Position numbers and translations under genes: made by a program. From UHGV virus genome UHGV-0033546: a stretch of DNA of 64,000 bases; one strand, written 5' to 3'. Shown here piece after piece: positions 1,334-51,924 of this stretch. Position 1 is the stretch's first letter, and every line of letters begins with the position of its first letter. Source of the DNA: a virus. Below the pieces are notes generated by a model. It was not told where the DNA came from. It did not search any database and was given only the letters and a program-made list of their open reading frames with translations.

Positions 1334-1936
1334 TTATAGATTAAATCCTTCAAAATCAAGAGTATAGATAGTGTATGTTGAATACTTTTTATACTCATAT
1401 CTATCTGCAATTCTAAATACACTTCCAGCTGGTATCATTACTTCTTGTTCATCTGAAACTAATTCCATATTACGATAGCGATGGCTATCCGGAAACTTAA
1501 AGCTTGGATTGTATTCTTTACAGCGTAGAGCTTTTATAGCATACTCCTGGAAATTAAATACCATAGGAGCTTTGAATTCAAAAATAATTTGTGTATTGTA
1601 TTCTAATCCAGAAGCAAAATGTAGAGCTATATTTTTATCATATGAAGCTGATACTACTTTATCAAATGTAATAATATCAATTCCTTGATTTAACACTTGT
1701 TTAGTCTCGACTGGAACACCTCTCCAAAGAGGTTTATCGTTTGGTTCCAAACGAGATTTGATTATTTCATTTAACCAAGTGTGGTCATCTGGCTTATTAG
1801 TAATACAATGAATTAAAAGTTCAATTTCGGATAAATTAAACCCTTCAGAAAGTAATTCTTCACGAATAGAAGCACGCACCGATGCATCCATTGATTTGAT
1901 TTTAAAATCATTTAATTGCATTGCTGAATATTTCAT
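1334..1936 (-). CDS. modA: ADP-ribosyltransferase ModA-like
   Basis: 200 aa; R (WRGVP), SxS (SAS) and catalytic-Glu (EQEVMIP) ART motifs; position. Confidence 0.6.
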   Translation of the reverse strand: MKYSAMQLNDFKIKSMDASVRASIREELLSEGFNLSEIELLIHCITNKPDDHTWLNEIIKSRLEPNDKPLWRGVPVETKQVLNQGIDIITFDKVVSASYDKNIALHFASGLEYNTQIIFEFKAPMVFNFQEYAIKALRCKEYNPSFKFPDSHRYRNMELVSDEQEVMIPAGSVFRIADRYEYKKYSTYTIYTLDFEGFNL

Positions 1937-2568
1937 TCAACTACCTCAATATCATAAACTCTAAATGTTCCAAATGAATCGTGTAATTTTTCTTTTGAAA
2001 TAGAAGTTATTTTATACTTTCCAATTGGAACCATCCATTCTTGTTCATGTACAATCATCATTAAGTTATCAGTACGTTCTGAATCTAATCCATCAGTATC
2101 TTCATATGTATACTTGAACTCAGTATTTGGAGAAGAAAGTATAATATCGCTGATATGGTCAGAGTAATTAAAAGCTTTATCAGTTTTTAAGCGAAATATT
2201 ATTTCAGTGAAATATTCAGCATAAGAAAAAGAGCATGCTGTATGCAAACTAGTAGTAAATGAATCTACTCTATTCGTTGAAAACACTTCTCCAACTTGCA
2301 AATCTTTAATGAGTTCTTTTGTCGATTTTGATATACCACGATATAGCTGATAAGGTGATTTAGTTAAATGCTTTTTAACGATTTTATTCAACTGCCGATG
2401 AAGAGCTTCATTCTTTTTGGCTTCCATACATTGCCAAAGAATTGACTGTTCAAAGTCAGTAAATTTTTCACAGACCTTTTTATACATATCATATTGAAAA
2501 TCGACGCTTTCAGCTTTTATAGATAACTGTTCAACATCTGCAGGATTAATAATCATGATAGCCTCCAT
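1933..2568 (-). CDS. modB: ADP-ribosyltransferase ModB-like
   Basis: 211 aa paralog of adjacent ART: YRGIS, STN, EQEWMVP motifs. Confidence 0.6.
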   Translation of the reverse strand: MEAIMIINPADVEQLSIKAESVDFQYDMYKKVCEKFTDFEQSILWQCMEAKKNEALHRQLNKIVKKHLTKSPYQLYRGISKSTKELIKDLQVGEVFSTNRVDSFTTSLHTACSFSYAEYFTEIIFRLKTDKAFNYSDHISDIILSSPNTEFKYTYEDTDGLDSERTDNLMMIVHEQEWMVPIGKYKITSISKEKLHDSFGTFRVYDIEVVE

Positions 2569-5032: not shown

Positions 5033-5551
5033 TTAATAACCTCTGTCTTGACGTGCGAAATTTTCTGCATTTTTCAGATAATAAAGTTTAAAGATTTCTT
5101 CAGCAGTAAGACCAAGACCTTGAAACATATTCAGAACGAAATGAAGAATATCAATCATTTCAAATTTAATTTCCAACTGGTCTTGCGGAGACAAATCAGT
5201 AATCAGAGTTTCACGGCGTTCACCATGTTGCGACTTCCAAGGTTTCCATACAGCAGATGCATCTTTTTCGCCATTGCTCATACCACCAAGAGAAGTCAGA
5301 AGTTCACGGAATTCATCATCAATATAGTCTTTCTGATTACGTAGCCAATCAACAACTTCACCGGCAGTAGCCAAATCATCAGGATGACGGTTATATTCAG
5401 GTTTATCTTTAGCTAAACGAACCTGTAAAGATTTCTGCATATCAAGCATAACCTGCAGCGGGTCTTTTTCATCACCGAGAATATCCCAGTATTCATTTTG
5501 AGCTTTATCAGCGCCTTCGATCAGTTGTGAACATTCGTTAAAGTATGCCAT
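5033..5551 (-). CDS. 56: dCTPase/dCTP pyrophosphatase gp56
   Basis: start re-assigned to internal ATG 5551 (MAYFNEC..., AAGGA SD); strong match to recalled T4 gp56. Confidence 0.85.
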   Translation of the reverse strand: MAYFNECSQLIEGADKAQNEYWDILGDEKDPLQVMLDMQKSLQVRLAKDKPEYNRHPDDLATAGEVVDWLRNQKDYIDDEFRELLTSLGGMSNGEKDASAVWKPWKSQHGERRETLITDLSPQDQLEIKFEMIDILHFVLNMFQGLGLTAEEIFKLYYLKNAENFARQDRGY

Positions 5552-5585
5552 TATTTTTCCTTTCAATTCATGGGTTAGTAGATTA

Positions 5586-5609
5586 ATTATACAATAAATA
5601 TATAAAGCA
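5586..5609 (-). promoter_or_regulatory. MotA-dependent middle promoter upstream of gene 56
   Basis: minus strand TGCTTTA (MotA box), 11 nt, TATAAT. Confidence 0.5.
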
Positions 5610-5622
5610 ATAAGGAGGACAT

Positions 5623-5823
5623 ATGGTACAAAAATTAATGGCACTTGTCAATGCCATAAAAGGTAATAAAAAGCGTATAGCTTTTACTATTTCTGCTATG
5701 GTAGGAATTTTACTCTGGAACTTTATTTTATCGCCAATTGCTATTGCTCATGGCGTCAATATTCCAGTAGTTACTCTTGATACATTCGTAGATTTAGCAT
5801 TTGCTTTAGTTGGGCTAATTTAA
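5623..5823 (+). CDS. hypothetical small membrane protein on opposite strand (66 aa)
   Basis: plus ORF in 56-61 intergenic gap; AAGGAGG 4 nt before ATG; two hydrophobic segments; SD overlaps minus promoter, so could be fortuitous. Confidence 0.3.
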   Translation: MVQKLMALVNAIKGNKKRIAFTISAMVGILLWNFILSPIAIAHGVNIPVVTLDTFVDLAFALVGLI

Positions 5824-7016: not shown

Positions 7017-7373
7017 TTAACCTCTATTCATAAAAGCATTAAAAATTTGGTCATCAATCGATGGAATAGCAACTTTTTCTGCATCATTTAGCAAATCATT
7101 AATTTCATCAGATAGCATAACACATGTACCTTTATTTCCTGTAATTGTTACTGCACAATTACGAACGTTTTCTTTATCAAATTTTAGGTTAATATTTTCG
7201 TAGTGAAAATCCTTTAATGCCGAATATATTTTTAAAATGAAATTGTCTTTTACTACAATAAACCCAACCTCGCTATTAAAACGTGGTTCATGGAAGCTGT
7301 AATAAATCTTTTCATCTATGAAATCGTATGAAATTTTTTCCAATTTTAAATATGAAAATTCAGAACTATACAT
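7017..7373 (-). CDS. hypothetical protein (61.2 position; possible AdfA-like anti-DarT factor by position only)
   Basis: 118-aa ORF(-). Confidence 0.5.
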   Translation of the reverse strand: MYSSEFSYLKLEKISYDFIDEKIYYSFHEPRFNSEVGFIVVKDNFILKIYSALKDFHYENINLKFDKENVRNCAVTITGNKGTCVMLSDEINDLLNDAEKVAIPSIDDQIFNAFMNRG

Positions 7374-46457: not shown

Positions 46458-46670
46458 TCATTTTTGTCCTGTATTTACTTTATGCCGATGTACGGCCTTA
46501 ACTTTATCAAGGTATTTTTCAAAATTTCGCAATCTGGTATAGTCTGCCGGAGATTGGTTGAGTGATACTTCTCGACGCAAAGCTGAAATAACATTTCCAA
46601 CTTCCCTACGAATTTCATCTAATTGAAGCACAGTAAGATTGCGAAGTTGCTTTTCAGTTAATTGTAGCAT
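46458..46670 (-). CDS. hypothetical protein
   Basis: 70-aa ORF(-). Confidence 0.45.
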
Positions 46671-46712
46671 ATATACCCCTTTAGTTAGATAAACCTATTT
46701 ATAACTTTTGCA

Positions 46713-47294
46713 CTAACCGAGCTTTTTAGTTAATTCATTCCAATGTTTTCTACATAAAGAAACATAAATTTCATCACCAATACAGATTTGATTACCTTCT
46801 TTAACAGGTGTTCCATCTTCCATTAATCGAGCTGTCATAATCGCTTTTTTACCACAATGACAAACTGCCTTTAGTTCAATAAGTTTATCTGCAATCGCTA
46901 AAAGTTCTTTAGAACCTTCGAATAATTTTCCAGCGAAATCAGTTCTTAATCCATAAGCCATAACAGGAACATTATATGTATCAACAATTCGGCTTAATTG
47001 GTGCACCTGTTCAGTTTTTAAAAACTGAGCTTCATCTACAAATACGCAATGAATATCTTTTTGTGCTTCAGCCCATTTATAGAACTCGAAAATATCCATA
47101 TCATCCGTAATAATATTCGCTTCCTGTTTAATTCCAATGCGAGAAACGACTTCACAAACAGAATCGCGAGTATCAATAGCAGGCTTAAGAACTAATACAC
47201 CCATTCCGCGTTCTTTATAATTATGCGCAGCAGTCAAAAGAGAAGCAGATTTTCCAGCATTCATTGCTGCATAAGTAAAAATTAAACTCGCCAT
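46713..47294 (-). CDS. tk: thymidine kinase
   Basis: 193 aa; P-loop AMNAGKS; C-terminal zinc motif CHCGKK...C..C. Confidence 0.85.
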   Translation of the reverse strand: MASLIFTYAAMNAGKSASLLTAAHNYKERGMGVLVLKPAIDTRDSVCEVVSRIGIKQEANIITDDMDIFEFYKWAEAQKDIHCVFVDEAQFLKTEQVHQLSRIVDTYNVPVMAYGLRTDFAGKLFEGSKELLAIADKLIELKAVCHCGKKAIMTARLMEDGTPVKEGNQICIGDEIYVSLCRKHWNELTKKLG

Positions 47295-47303
47295 ATCACC
47301 TTC

Positions 47304-47489
47304 TTAAAGCGTATTCACATAAGCTATTAATTCGTTTTCTTTCTTATCAAACCGACCAGCAAATTCTTCCTGCTGTTCGGGAGATATCGGGCCATATTCA
47401 TCATAAAAGGCGTTTGCTTCTGTATGCTCATCTAGAAGTTCATGGATAAGCTCAAACAATTTATCTTTTTGTTCTTTACTTAGGCTCAT
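47304..47489 (-). CDS. hypothetical protein
   Basis: 61-aa acidic ORF(-). Confidence 0.45.
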   Translation of the reverse strand: MSLSKEQKDKLFELIHELLDEHTEANAFYDEYGPISPEQQEEFAGRFDKKENELIAYVNTL

Positions 47490-47659
47490 ATATTAATTTC
47501 CAGAAGTTTTAAAATAATTCGCTTTTGCTTAAATATTTCCATAGTTAAATGATCAGTATCTTTTTGACCAATTCCAATGGCAAAACCTTTATTAGCAGCG
47601 AGTTCAATTAAATTATCAAGTTCATGTAACACTTCGTATTGTAACTCAGAGCTATTCAT
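47486..47659 (-). CDS. hypothetical small protein (57 aa)
   Basis: ATGA overlaps at both ends with neighbours. Confidence 0.3.
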   Translation of the reverse strand: MNSSELQYEVLHELDNLIELAANKGFAIGIGQKDTDHLTMEIFKQKRIILKLLEINI

Positions 47660-47883
47660 TTCGGTTTACCTTCTTTAACGAAATCAGGATAAGGATAAAA
47701 TCCTGAATAAAATCCTTCGCCTTTATGATTGATGCATCCTTTATTAGAACAATAGCACCAATAATCAAAATCACAAGCCATTTCATCATTACATAAAGCA
47801 AATACAACTGGCCATTCGCACTTTTCGCAGTGGGCATTTTTAAGAATACTAGTTTGGCTCATAACCATGTAACCTTTAAGCAA
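47656..47883 (-). CDS. hypothetical Cys-rich protein
   Basis: 75 aa; CEKCEW...C..C.C...C. Confidence 0.45.
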   Translation of the reverse strand: MLKGYMVMSQTSILKNAHCEKCEWPVVFALCNDEMACDFDYWCYCSNKGCINHKGEGFYSGFYPYPDFVKEGKPK

Positions 47884-48071
47884 TATTCTTCTACGTGTTG
47901 TTTACGACCTTTCTTATCAATAAAGGTATATTCAACGAATGTTCCAATGTAGTCTTTATCTACATCATGTGGACTATTAATTGGGCATTTAGTACGGCAA
48001 ATGCGTTCCCATTGACGAATAATTACTGCTTTGTTTTTAGGATCAAACGGATGCGGGTAATGTGCTTTCAT
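47859..48071 (-). CDS. hypothetical protein
   Basis: 70-aa ORF(-). Confidence 0.45.
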   Translation of the reverse strand: MKAHYPHPFDPKNKAVIIRQWERICRTKCPINSPHDVDKDYIGTFVEYTFIDKKGRKQHVEEYCLKVTWL

Positions 48072-48522
48072 AATCCACCACTATTAAATCAATATCAGGA
48101 GTAAACATGTCGATTAATTTAGAAACCTTATCCCAATCACCGCCAGCAATACCACAACCTATACGTGGAATGTAAATTACTGGTTTAAACAAAAGGGTTT
48201 CTGCCTGTAGATTTAATTCTATCATACAGTTTACTAAAGCACCATAATCAAGATTAGAACCCGGTTCGTATTGCGTATACAAATTATAGCACATACTAAA
48301 TCCTGTAGGATTATGTTTAAAAACAATAGACATGTCGCCTAATTTATCACGAGAACCGTACTCGGTAGTGGTTTTATCTATTTCTAAAATTTTGGGATAG
48401 GCTCTTGCTAATTGACCCGCTACGCCAGAGCCCATTGTATGGAAGCAATTGCACCCGTGCGCAATAATATTACCTCCAAGAAAGAGGGCGACAATATCGC
48501 CCTTGATATATTTTACAATCAT
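48043..48522 (-). CDS. macro-domain protein (predicted ADP-ribose binding/hydrolase)
   Basis: 159 aa; YIKGDIVALF..GNIIAHGCNC...MGSGVAGQL and IPRIGCGIAGGDW resemble macro-domain Gly-rich loops. Confidence 0.6.
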   Translation of the reverse strand: MIVKYIKGDIVALFLGGNIIAHGCNCFHTMGSGVAGQLARAYPKILEIDKTTTEYGSRDKLGDMSIVFKHNPTGFSMCYNLYTQYEPGSNLDYGALVNCMIELNLQAETLLFKPVIYIPRIGCGIAGGDWDKVSKLIDMFTPDIDLIVVDYESTLPASV

Positions 48523-48866
48523 CTAGTACTCAATCCTCGATTATAAGAATCTACTAAACGGTCAACCATTGAACGACAAGCGGCTTTGTCTTTTTCCTCC
48601 GCGACTGAGCATTCTAAGGTATTCCATTTTTTAGCATATCGTTTTAATAATGTATCGTTTTTGTATCTGCTTGATTTATCTCTTTCTCCGTCTTTATATG
48701 CATATATTAATTTCTGCGCAAATTCAGCTTGACATGCTTTATTTTTCCCACAATAATCTGCCGCAGTGCGGTTTACATACTCTCTAATTTCAGTATATGA
48801 TGTATCTGCTGACGCAGAAGCAGAAATTGAAATTAATCCTATACATAAAACCAAAATTTTAGTCAT
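48519..48866 (-). CDS. secreted hypothetical protein
   Basis: 115 aa; signal peptide MTKILVLCIGLISISASASA. Confidence 0.5.
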   Translation of the reverse strand: MTKILVLCIGLISISASASADTSYTEIREYVNRTAADYCGKNKACQAEFAQKLIYAYKDGERDKSSRYKNDTLLKRYAKKWNTLECSVAEEKDKAACRSMVDRLVDSYNRGLSTR

Positions 48867-49404
48867 TTACTATTTCCAAAAGTTTATTATTTTTAAGGTA
48901 ATTAGCCTTTTCTAGGACTTCAGAAGCATATTTAGAACCTGCTTTAACATTCCATCCCGAATTATAAGAGGATATTGCTTTTCTTATATCGCCCTTATGT
49001 ATATTTAACCAATAAGAAAGTTCAATGTACGCCCAGGAAGCTGAATTGGACCGTTTATTCAACATTCTTTTTATTTCAGCATCGGTCATATTATAACCAA
49101 GTTCCTTAACTCTTGCTCGCATAGTTGGCAAATAATTTTGGAACATTCCATAGGCATGATGCTTTGGTTTAGATTTTAAATTAACTCCGCCAGAGCTTTC
49201 TTGCCATAAAATGGCTGCCATTATATGACCTAATCCACTCTTATGAACATTTTGGTGTGTTTTATATTTTCCATCCTTAGAAAACTGTTCCCCGAATTGA
49301 TACGCGTAACGCATGTTATCGAGTTGGACATTACTGAAAGTATGCTCGGAGCTATGTGCCATCATAGAAATGGCCAATAGACCAGCGAGTAGTGCTTTTC
49401 TCAT
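48859..49404 (-). CDS. secreted lysozyme-like (SLT-type) protein
   Basis: 181 aa; signal peptide; WQESSGG catalytic-Glu motif. Confidence 0.55.
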   Translation of the reverse strand: MRKALLAGLLAISMMAHSSEHTFSNVQLDNMRYAYQFGEQFSKDGKYKTHQNVHKSGLGHIMAAILWQESSGGVNLKSKPKHHAYGMFQNYLPTMRARVKELGYNMTDAEIKRMLNKRSNSASWAYIELSYWLNIHKGDIRKAISSYNSGWNVKAGSKYASEVLEKANYLKNNKLLEIVND

Positions 49405-49411
49405 GTTTACC

Positions 49412-49873
49412 TCATTGAGTTTTAATTACTGCTTTAGAAGCCTTTCCTGGTAAACGACGACTGTTGATAATTGCCATCCTACATTGAAGTGACGGGTCTT
49501 TGAACTTCGCATTAGGTTTACAAACCGTAAATCCAAGCCAAAGATTTCCATCTGTGATTTCTAAACGTCCAGGACGATATTCAACTCCATCAATAAAATC
49601 CTCGTCAATATCAGGACGCGGAGGCATACTCAGGAATTCATTAACTTCTAAAACATGGTCTTTTATTTTATGGAATAATTCAAAAACATATGTCTCATCA
49701 ATCTCCCGTTGAATTGCACGATCAAGAAGATGTTGAGAATATTTTAGATGAAACGATGAGACTCCTGCTGCTTTTGATGCCTCACGAATCTCATTGTTAA
49801 TTTGACGAAACTCCGACTCAAAGTGACGACGAAGCTTATTTCGACGGATAAAAACTTCTGTGTTGATAGTCAT
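49412..49873 (-). CDS. regB: endoribonuclease RegB
   Basis: 153 aa matching recalled T4 RegB. Confidence 0.85.
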   Translation of the reverse strand: MTINTEVFIRRNKLRRHFESEFRQINNEIREASKAAGVSSFHLKYSQHLLDRAIQREIDETYVFELFHKIKDHVLEVNEFLSMPPRPDIDEDFIDGVEYRPGRLEITDGNLWLGFTVCKPNAKFKDPSLQCRMAIINSRRLPGKASKAVIKTQ

Positions 49874-49899
49874 GTTATTCTCCTCTTAACTGATAGGAA

Positions 49900-49929
49900 A
49901 ATTATACCACAGTCAAGAGGAAAAGTAAA
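49900..49929 (-). promoter_or_regulatory. T4-type early promoter
   Basis: minus strand GTTTACT, 18 nt, TGG-TATAAT upstream of regB. Confidence 0.6.
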
Positions 49930-49932
49930 CAG

Positions 49933-50211
49933 TTATTCTTTAAATCTAATCAATTTATTCATAGACTTTGTAACTTCTGCACGGACCTCATGCAGGTTTT
50001 TAAGCTGTTCAAGACGTTGCTCATAGTAAGCAATTTCATCTTCTTCGAGACAGTCGTCAGAATCTTCTTTAAGATAACGCGCATAGTCCTGGAAAGCTTT
50101 ACGAACTACTTCTTGGAAGTCATCAAGACTTTGAATTTTCTTAGGAGCAACAGATACACGACGAGGGGCGGTATAATACTCGTAACCAAACCCTGCGCTT
50201 AATTGAGCCAT
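49933..50211 (-). CDS. hypothetical protein (one of two Acb2/Vs.4 positional candidates)
   Basis: 92 aa from ATG 50211 (AGGAAA SD); overlaps upstream ORF by 71 nt. Confidence 0.4.
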
Positions 50212-50476
50212 TAATATTTTTCCTCTGGTTGGAACACTGCACGACAAGCCCACATACTGGCTTCTTTGAGTTTCGTTTAGCAATAGTTAACTGATCGAGG
50301 CTTTCGGCGTAATTCTTCGCGAATTCATAGTCTTCACAATTATCTAGTGCTTCCCAGAATTCGTCATATAAAGCGGAAAAGATAAGTCCTAAACGAACTT
50401 CAGCGTCTTTGATAGCATTCACTTTACCGATTTTCTCTTCAGTATGTGGTTTATAACCTTTAATATCTTCAATCAT
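50141..50476 (-). CDS. hypothetical protein (boundaries uncertain)
   Basis: 111 aa from ATG 50476 (ATGA with upstream stop); low-complexity C-terminus, so a frameshift is possible. Confidence 0.4.
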
Positions 50477-50690
50477 ATTTGACTTCCTCGCCAGTACCCA
50501 AATCATATTCAACTAAACGAATAGGTTCATGAATGCCATATCCTTGAACAGAAATTTCTGTCGTAGGATAAATTCCATCAATATCACCCATATTCCATGC
50601 CTCATTAAATTGTTGTTCGCCTGAATTACTAAACCATTCAGCGAAAGCATTTAGTACATCTTCAGAACCTTCAATAATTATCTTTGCCAT
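50469..50690 (-). CDS. hypothetical protein
   Basis: 73-aa acidic ORF(-). Confidence 0.45.
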   Translation of the reverse strand: MAKIIIEGSEDVLNAFAEWFSNSGEQQFNEAWNMGDIDGIYPTTEISVQGYGIHEPIRLVEYDLGTGEEVKYD

Positions 50691-51052
50691 TATAAGCTCT
50701 CAGTAAAGGTACGAGCGATAACGTCGCGCTGCTGTTCCGGAGTCAGAGAGTTAAAGCGAACTGCATAACCGGATACACGGATGGTCAGCTGCGGATATTT
50801 TTCCGGATGCTTAACTGCATCTTCCAGAGTTTCACGACGCAGAACGTTAACGTTCAGGTGTTGACCACCTTCAATTTTAACTGTAGGCTGTGACTCAATT
50901 TCAATTTCACGGGCATGCAAACCATAGAAAATTTCTGGGTCTACAAAAGAGTCCTCTTTAAAAGTTTTAGAGACAATAATTCGTGCTTGAATACCATCTT
51001 CAAAATAAATAGTACCTTTATGTGTGCCTTCAAGAATTTGATATGCTTTCAT
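50690..51052 (-). CDS. autonomous glycyl radical cofactor (GrcA/YfiD-like)
   Basis: 120 aa; C-terminal [59 protein letters not shown] with RVSGY glycyl-radical motif. Confidence 0.7.
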
Positions 51053-51058
51053 ATAACC

Positions 51059-51388
51059 TCAATTAGAAAATAAATTTATCCAAGATTGTTCTTTAATTAA
51101 AAATGGCTCAGAATCATATGCCATTAAACTTTGGGTAATTAATCCTTTAAATGGTCCATCAATAAATTCCATTGTAAAATATGGAATTTTATTCATTAAC
51201 CGTGCATTAGGAGCAGTGCACAAAACTCTGCATCCTTTGAATACACCTTTCTGTAATTTATATTGCTTGGGATAAAATTCGCTCAAGACGTTGTTATTTG
51301 CTAAAATTTCAAAATGATTCACCAACTTATTTTTAATAGTTTTTGGCGAAAAATAAAGATATTCAAAAAGCTGCGCATCTGTCATCAT
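51059..51388 (-). CDS. hypothetical protein
   Basis: 109 aa from ATG 51388 (ATGATGA junction). Confidence 0.45.
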   Translation of the reverse strand: MMTDAQLFEYLYFSPKTIKNKLVNHFEILANNNVLSEFYPKQYKLQKGVFKGCRVLCTAPNARLMNKIPYFTMEFIDGPFKGLITQSLMAYDSEPFLIKEQSWINLFSN

Positions 51389-51924
51389 TGCATTCCAATT
51401 ACGAAAAACTGTGGACGAGTAATACCACCAATGCAACATTTACTATTGCAGCAGTAGTGTACAGTGTCCATATGGGCGCTATAAATCTTATCCATATCAG
51501 GAGATTTAACAGGCTCATCAATTATATACAAAATTCGCGAAAGCGATAAACCTATAAACTTGCTTCCTTTATTACCAATAAAACTACGGACAGAATCGGT
51601 AAATAAACGAAAACGTATATCGTCATTAGAATAACGCGAAAATTCCTTTTTGATGTTATCTGCAGAAATTTTAGCGTAAGCTGAAGTATTAGAAAGAACA
51701 ATAACTGTTCCGCCATCATACAGCCAATTAGCAGCAAAGTTAGTCACAGCAGTTGATTTACCGGATTGACGTCCACCATCTAGTCGAAGAGTGCAATACT
51801 GTTTAAGCAAGTCTTCAAATGGCAAGATATAATCGTTTTTACAAATTTCTTCTACTCTAGCATCAGAATGGTGTGTAAAAGCATTCATCAGGGATAGATA
51901 AGGACCAGTCAAAAATGTTCTCAT
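51385..51924 (-). CDS. hypothetical P-loop protein
   Basis: 179 aa from ATG 51924; Walker A-like GGRQSGKST. Confidence 0.5.
   Translation of the reverse strand: MRTFLTGPYLSLMNAFTHHSDARVEEICKNDYILPFEDLLKQYCTLRLDGGRQSGKSTAVTNFAANWLYDGGTVIVLSNTSAYAKISADNIKKEFSRYSNDDIRFRLFTDSVRSFIGNKGSKFIGLSLSRILYIIDEPVKSPDMDKIYSAHMDTVHYCCNSKCCIGGITRPQFFVIGMQ

Follow-up and report, generated by a model that had tools for sequence, protein, structure and literature searches.

The stretch of viral DNA analysed here, 64,000 nucleotides (nt) of the virus genome UHGV-0033546 (hereafter the window), carries an ortholog of the T4 gene tk.4, also named adfM, which encodes a single macro domain of 159 amino acids on the minus strand (48043..48522, taken from the ATG-to-stop listing of open reading frames (ORFs) and its translation). 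The gene, its fold, its orthology and its active-site residues are established by our analysis. Judged by orthology to T4 tk.4/adfM, the best-supported function of the gene is the reversal of thymidine ADP-ribosylation of phage DNA by DarT2, which we regard as probable, and for the window allele, 56% identical to the T4 protein, we infer the same anti-DarTG2 role by enzymatic removal. According to this model, the host toxin DarT2 would put ADP-ribose on thymidine in single-stranded phage DNA and thereby block replication. The phage enzyme, a predicted stand-alone ADP-ribosyl hydrolase, would bind ADP-ribose with both glycine loops and cut the thymine N3-C1'' bond, which would restore normal DNA; Gln84, His22 and Asn25 would jointly place the substrate and a water molecule, and no nucleophilic or catalytic lysine would take part.

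The identity of tk.4 is correct but already known: the domain has long been annotated, reportedly since the T4 genome paper, and the role was published in 2025. A1pp is an older name of the macro domain. The T4 record NC_000866 labels tk.4 as 'phosphatase; contains A1pp phosphatase motif', hence the doubt of a first-pass annotation of this DNA that the characterised T4 genes include a macro-domain gene has to be corrected, T4 tk.4 being one. Its proposal that the protein reverses DNA ADP-ribosylation of the DarT type matches the tk.4 phenotype published for the T4 ortholog (10.1101/2025.11.20.689424).

Macro domain and orthology with T4 tk.4

The first-pass annotation had assigned a macro domain with glycine-rich loops, and profile searches, the predicted structure and the loops conserved on the family alignment agree with it. 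The 159-residue protein matches the Pfam family Macro (PF01661) with E=1.3e-8 and 35.2 bits, the gathering cut-off being 22 bits, over profile positions 2-117 of 118, and PHROG 335 with E=1e-69; tblastn detected homologs in 2,769 phage records out of 50,697. Among the PDB sequences, phmmer retrieved BT1257, yeast Poa1p, SCO6735, the DarG macrodomain of M. tuberculosis and TARG1; the best PDB sequence match is BT1257 (profile E=3e-20). An AlphaFold2 model computed from a 59-sequence family alignment (identities 38-79%) reached a mean predicted local distance difference test value (pLDDT) of 94.4 and a predicted template modelling score (pTM) of 0.89 and has the three-layer alpha/beta macro fold. 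In the Foldseek comparison with the PDB, TARG1, Poa1p, BT1257, DarG and SCO6735 lead and viral Mac1-type domains come next; 153 matches were obtained at E<=0.001, those listed being macrodomains or designed serine hydrolases with a macro-like scaffold. On the basis of the predicted structure, the leading matches place the tk.4 product in the ALC1-like macro class. Both motifs quoted in the first-pass annotation are present in the translation (residues 17-38, GNIIAHGCNCFHTMGSGVAGQL; residues 118-130, IPRIGCGIAGGDW), as are N25, G31-S-G33 and G122-C-G124-I-A-G-G, most of which are invariant across the 59 homologs. The ORF is a real gene encoding a real macro domain, and the match lies far beyond chance.

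The locus itself is of the T4 type. A megablast search with positions 47000-50000 returned 755 phage records with Tequatrovirus as best match (about 96.8% identity), and judged by its sequence the window belongs to Tequatrovirus. T4 and annotated relatives carry tk, followed by small tk.x ORFs and then by tk.3, tk.4, vs, vs.1 and regB, and the same order is found in the window. The ORF occupies the tk.4 slot between tk.3 and vs and is therefore the positional ortholog of T4 tk.4. BLASTP of the window protein against T4 Tk.4 gave E=7e-69 with 57% identity in a gapless alignment over 155 residues; overall, the protein is 56% identical to T4 Tk.4 versus 37% to the phosphatase Adpp and 21-27% to other macros. 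In a neighbour-joining tree of 79 IMG/VR homologs and references, computed without bootstrap, one clade unites the proteins of T2, T4 and T6 with the window protein and the macro proteins from loci with tk and vs.1 around the macro gene (synteny observed in 29 IMG/VR loci), except L062, L063, L065 and L079. This Tk.4 clade, with the signature NLYTQ-x7-[DE]Y, stands apart from NARP1-linked homologs, from BT1257/SCO6735 and from DarG/PhiKZ AdfM. Besides the clade and the position between tk.3 and vs, the window protein shares with T4 Tk.4 (NP_049723) the single-domain architecture and all family-invariant residues, as well as NLYTQ with a loop of 7 residues behind it. It differs in length (159 versus 155 amino acids) and in loop 2, which reads GCGIAGGDW in the window and GAGIGKGNW in T4, the window version being nearer to the family consensus. 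A further variant was seen in T6 Tk.4 (L009, MH550421, 3138-3605), where the first glycine loop reads HTMKAGVAG instead of the HTMGSGVAG of T4, T2 and the window phage; this G31K/S32A exchange could affect ADP-ribose binding or represent a sequencing difference.

T-even phages without adfA and adfN stay resistant to DarTG2, and from this a further factor was predicted (PMC11257639). In a T4 transposon library propagated on a DarTG2 host, only tk.4 reached significance, and a clean tk.4 knockout rendered T4 sensitive to DarTG2, upon which the gene was renamed adfM (anti-DarT factor Macrodomain); ADP-ribose removal from DNA by the T4 product 'seems likely' according to the authors (HIDEN-SEQ preprint, bioRxiv 10.1101/2025.11.20.689424). 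Our literature search found no biochemical study of T4 Tk.4 besides this preprint. The likewise named AdfM of phage PhiKZ, gp104, strips DarT2-made ADP-ribose from DNA in vitro, and its residues N23 and K78 correspond to N22 and K80 of DarG (PMC13309987).

A Gln-type active site

On the family alignment, residues 22-36 (HGCNCFHTMGSGVAG; 48415..48459, minus strand) comprise the invariant His22 and Asn25 and glycine loop 1, with a predicted role in ADP-ribose binding and catalysis, while residues 119-130 (PRIGCGIAGGDW; 48133..48168, minus strand) form glycine loop 2, the predicted diphosphate-binding loop, which aligns with PRIGCGLAGGKW of BT1257. Residues 80-84 (NLYTQ; 48271..48285, minus strand) include the invariant Gln84, placed by MAFFT and profile-profile alignment. 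Altogether 15 residues are invariant in the 59-sequence alignment (H22, G23, N25, C26, G33, A35, D49, G62, N80, Y82, Q84, P119, G122, G124 and W130), all of them held by the T4 allele and the window allele alike, and A126, G127 and G128 are conserved in at least 90% of the sequences.

Gln84 falls on K80 of DarG and K84 of TARG1 in the MAFFT as well as in the hhalign comparison (probability 98.9%); PhiKZ AdfM retains the Lys. These and the following residue equivalences derive from sequence and profile alignments, in which the M. tuberculosis DarG sequence is an exact match to PDB 5M3I and the TARG1 sequence is consistent with chain 4J5R across the residues aligned. In SCO6735, H24, N27 and Q85 are the counterparts of H22, N25 and Q84 (numbering rebuilt from the 5E3B chain), and BT1257 likewise has Gln at the position of the catalytic Lys; thus SCO6735 and BT1257 (PDB 5E3B, 2FG1) share with the window protein this replacement and the conserved His and Asn. 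SCO6735 is without the catalytic residues of TARG1 and DarG, its Q85A and Q85E mutants are inactive, and it clears the thymidine-ADP-ribose made by DarT more rapidly than DarG or TARG1 do and can rescue E. coli exposed to DarT; moreover, the reversal of thymidine ADP-ribosylation has been proposed as a unifying activity of the ALC1-like macro class (PMC9411070). Because the Gln-type SCO6735 performs this chemistry, the missing Lys is no argument against DNA de-ADP-ribosylation. By analogy, Gln84 probably points to an SCO6735-like, water-mediated mechanism rather than a DarG-like one. The Gln of T4 Tk.4 is not remarked on in the literature cited here.

With the DarG macrodomain (PDB 5M3I, 5M31/5M3E) and PhiKZ AdfM, the window protein has in common the ALC1-like fold (Foldseek E about 1e-7, template modelling (TM) score 0.74-0.78), the proposed substrate, thymidine-linked ADP-ribose on single-stranded DNA, and DarT2 as opponent, but it is only 21-27% identical to them and their Lys (K80; K78 in PhiKZ) is Gln. 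In terms of aligned sequences, T4-type AdfM (Gln) and PhiKZ-type AdfM (Lys) are different macro lineages. Human TARG1 (PDB 4J5S), which is said to reverse DarT thymidine-ADP-ribosylation as well, is the best Foldseek match (E=9e-10, TMt 0.82), but identity is about 20% and its catalytic dyad of Lys84 and Asp125 is replaced by Gln84 and Ala126. Yeast Poa1p (PDB 6LFQ-6LFU) is among the top structural matches and its His23 corresponds to His22, but it has Ser at the Gln84 position. An identity as DarG antitoxin was considered and rejected: the NCBIfam model NF048014 scored 29.3 bits against a cut-off of 250 and matched only at positions 3-142 of 338, and the window protein is without the catalytic Lys, the C-terminal DarT-binding domain and an adjacent darT, its neighbours being vs and tk.3. 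The PADLOC DarG model gave 28.5 bits, with its N-terminal part only.

Several points weigh against a DarT2-directed activity of the window protein. Only the T4 allele has been tested, and T2, T4 and T6 all carry that other, 56% identical allele; furthermore, the T4 phenotype is supported by genetics alone, published as a preprint (10.1101/2025.11.20.689424). The catalytic Lys of DarG and TARG1 and the Asp of TARG1 are absent. With regard to the Gln-type enzymes SCO6735 and BT1257, to which the phage-encoded window protein is about 26-27% identical, the DNA-contact lysines K34 and K89 of SCO6735 are not conserved (Ser32 and Gly88), and their extended mobile loop, 5-6 residues longer than in the window protein and about 5 longer than in DarG/TARG1, is missing, which shows up in the HMMER alignment with BT1257 as a gap of 6 residues. 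The stretch following the Gln comprises 7 residues in 76 of the 89 homologs with a detected motif, the search pattern having missed 31 of the top 120. The window protein is acidic, with an isoelectric point (pI) of 5.0 versus 9.9 and 8.9 for SCO6735 and BT1257; PhiKZ AdfM is equally acidic (5.05), so this feature is non-discriminating, and pI was dropped as a separator of DNA-acting from small-molecule macros. Finally, a relative with about 38% identity is a proven phosphatase acting on free ADP-ribose-1''-phosphate (ADPR-1''-P) (10.64898/2026.01.28.702374).

Alternative activities of the tk.4 product

The last point leads to the alternative that survives best, although we consider it unlikely: the tk.4 product might be an ADPR-1''-P phosphatase similar to Adpp or Poa1p, or a broader processor of soluble NAD-derived ADP-ribose derivatives. 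Its role, to which we give the same low weight, would then be to detoxify or recycle the ADPR-1''-P made from NAD+ by RES-domain (aRES) defences. Such an activity would fit the historical 'phosphatase' annotation of tk.4, and the first-pass annotation, which had named the processing of NAD-derived signals as an option, finds a published counterpart in the about 38% identical ADPR-1''-P phosphatases (10.64898/2026.01.28.702374). The macro protein of Vibrio phage Achelous shares 37-39% identity with the window protein and is encoded between Adps and Namat, i.e. flanked by a gene resembling phosphoribosyl pyrophosphate synthetase (PRPS) and one resembling nicotinamide phosphoribosyltransferase (NAMPT); both proteins are stand-alone phage macro proteins with the motifs H-x-C-N-C and N-x-Y-x-Q. 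The Achelous protein is in turn 98.7% identical to that of Vibrio phage Gary, whose Adpp turns ADPR-1P into ADPR in vitro, is required against aRES and lets NARP1 overcome it (10.64898/2026.01.28.702374). Poa1p is among the top matches in structure and in sequence, and a NAMPT-like gene lies within 4 kb in 11 of the 50 IMG/VR loci without tk/vs.1 synteny. However, neither Adps nor Namat was found in the 64-kb window by tblastn with the Achelous proteins (best E=0.24), and without NARP1 the production of ADPR does not rebuild NAD+. Moreover, the Tk.4 clade does not include the NARP1-linked homologs, the loop behind the Gln has 14 residues in Achelous, the one exemplar examined, versus 7 in the window protein, and the closest tested relative, T4 Tk.4 (56%), shows the anti-DarTG2 phenotype. 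A phosphatase activity would be compatible with an anti-DarT2 role, since each of the two reactions detaches a group from C1'' of ADP-ribose.

In this regard, the NARP1-AP arrangement, in which homologs are flanked or adjoined by PRPS-like (Adps) and NAMPT-like (Namat or NadV) genes, was noticed in marine and environmental phages. NARP1-AP-like loci are L007 (Vibrio phage Achelous, 3132-6138) and the IMG/VR loci L037, L038, L041, L044, L055, L056, L068, L071, L073, L080 and L082, and several distinct macro sub-clades are involved. A bacterial homolog from Pelagimonas (P0120) stands alone among housekeeping genes with no DarT and gives no functional clue.

Somewhat less probable still is a wider reading, in which the Tk.4 clade would represent a third, lysine-independent route to the removal of C1''-linked groups, characterised by the Gln-type site, the short loop and an acidic surface. 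Its strongly divergent alleles, which are exchanged as cassettes between Tequatrovirus and Dhakavirus, would perhaps differ in specificity, either being matched to DarT2 variants or acting on thymidine-ADP-ribose in DNA as well as on soluble ADPR-1''-P from RES-type NADases. If such dual-specificity alleles exist, a single small gene would act against two unrelated NAD-based defences.

It is improbable that protection is non-catalytic, with Tk.4 serving as a binder or sponge of ADP-ribose or inhibiting DarT2 directly, as has been reported of SCO6735 and DarG in catalytically dead form. The window protein indeed has no canonical catalytic Lys, and the inactive SCO6735 variant Q85A still inhibits DarT in vitro (PMC9411070). 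But His22, Asn25, Asn80, Tyr82 and Gln84 are invariant down to 38% identity, which indicates a conserved active site, and the same Gln is catalytically essential in SCO6735 (PMC9411070). An extra domain like the C-terminal DarT-binding domain of DarG is not present either (159 residues versus the 338 positions of the DarG model).

Least of all do we expect that tk.4 reverses or tunes the ADP-ribosylation of host proteins by the phage itself, i.e. by Alt, ModA and ModB including RNAylation by ModB. The first-pass annotation had stated that the phage encodes ModA/ModB-like ADP-ribosyltransferases, and both are found in the window, following srd as in T4: modA (1334..1936, minus strand; PHROG 832 'RNA polymerase ADP-ribosylase', E=2.5e-33; 96% identical to T4 ModA) and modB (1933..2568, minus strand; PHROG 832, same description, E=2.9e-41; 93% identical to T4 ModB). 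A writer and an eraser in one genome are a common pairing, but the link to tk.4 that this statement implied is not supported, as 45 kb separate tk.4 from the mod genes, with which it shares no operon, and the macro family occurs in other phage genera as well. It was found in Vequintavirus and Thalassavirus (labels from record taxonomy), in Felixounavirus-named and Pseudomonas phages (labels from phage names or hosts) and on a bacterial chromosome, a set not screened for Mod genes. Alt and Mod enzymes attach ADP-ribose to arginine; the ARH family cleaves this linkage, on which the ALC1-like macro class is not known to act. The targets of ALC1-like macrodomains are Glu/Asp esters, thymidine or 1''-phosphate (PMC9411070), and in T4 tk.4 was significant only on DarTG2 hosts (10.1101/2025.11.20.689424).

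Allelic exchange at tk.4 and genomic setting

Window Tk.4 shares only 56-57% amino acid identity with the 155-residue proteins of T4, T2 and T6 (63% nt identity to T4, a level at which synonymous sites are saturated), whereas the surrounding proteins (rI.-1, rI, rI.1, tk, tk.3, vs, vs.1 and regB) match those of T4 with 96-99% identity. A 100-nt sliding comparison with T4 gave 50-77% nt identity over about 48048-48447 versus 94-100% in vs, vs.1 and regB, over the 1.5 kb beyond the tk.4 start, and 97% in the part of tk.3 that directly follows the 3' end. With Dhakavirus JS98, the tk.4 body is 86-93% identical at the nt level, the upstream vs/vs.1/regB region 54-78% and the downstream tk.3 71-82%. 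Since the identity pattern reverses between T4 and JS98, tk.4 represents a JS98-type cassette in a T4-type backbone (48048..48447, no strand assigned, covering the tk.4 body). The window allele is carried at no less than 90% identity by about 313 phage records, and the metagenomic homologs form a continuum from 53% to 98% identity. Hence, tk.4 appears as a hot spot of allelic replacement, and the tested T4 allele may not represent the approximately 300 sequenced phages with the JS98-type allele.

A second replaced block (47299-47895) adjoins the tk.4 region; here tk.2 is 54% identical to T4 and 85-86% identical to JS98 at the nt level, while tk.3, located between both replaced blocks, is 96% identical to T4. 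T4 Tk.1 (position near 47295-47304) was not found in the 64-kb window by tblastn. At the T4 tk.1 position there are two small ORFs (47486..47659 and 47656..47883), the latter encoding a PF23895 phage zinc-binding domain and resembling RB32ORF110c/111c. The same tblastn search of the window with T4 proteins did not find dam and segF, which would lie between genes 56 and 61 (window 5551-5823).

Another difference from T4 touches the defence against DarT. AdfA is the anti-DarT1 factor of T-even phages and, like AdfN, is directed against DarTG1. The window gene at the 61.2 position (AdfA; 7017..7373, minus strand) encodes only 118 amino acids versus 208 in T4, with 31-35% identity over the C-terminal part and the C-terminal DDQIFNAFMNRG kept. 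The anti-DarT repertoire may thus differ from that of T4 at this second locus (61.2/AdfA), too. Together, AdfA and AdfN directed against DarTG1 and Tk.4/AdfM directed against DarTG2 constitute a layered anti-DarT repertoire of T-even phages, which illustrates how strongly DNA ADP-ribosylation shapes their genomes.

The tk.4 gene is tightly packed between its neighbours, as is typical of T4 early and middle gene strings. Its start codon overlaps the stop codon of vs in the sequence ATGA (48519..48522, minus strand), a Shine-Dalgarno sequence GAGGA is located 11 nt 5' of the ATG (48534..48538, minus strand), both read directly from the DNA, and the 3' end runs 29 nt into the start of tk.3. The ATGA overlap suggests translational coupling within the regB-vs.1-vs-tk.4-tk.3 string, and tk.4 is probably co-transcribed with regB, vs.1, vs and tk.3. 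A dedicated tk.4 promoter was dropped as a candidate: the scan of 46500-51500 returned 17 promoter-like sites versus 18.9 in shuffles, i.e. no excess, and the sole plausible site (49929-49901) lies upstream of regB. An 8-bp GC-rich hairpin (GAGGGCGACAATATCGCCCTT, 48484-48504) within the first 13 codons of tk.4 scored terminator-like on both strands and is situated near the recombination boundary of the divergent cassette. Farther upstream, vs.1 (48859..49404, minus strand), which is named only 'hypothetical protein' in many records, encodes an SLT domain of the lytic transglycosylase type (Pfam PF01464; E=1.5e-5, better than the cut-off) preceded by a signal-like N-terminal sequence.

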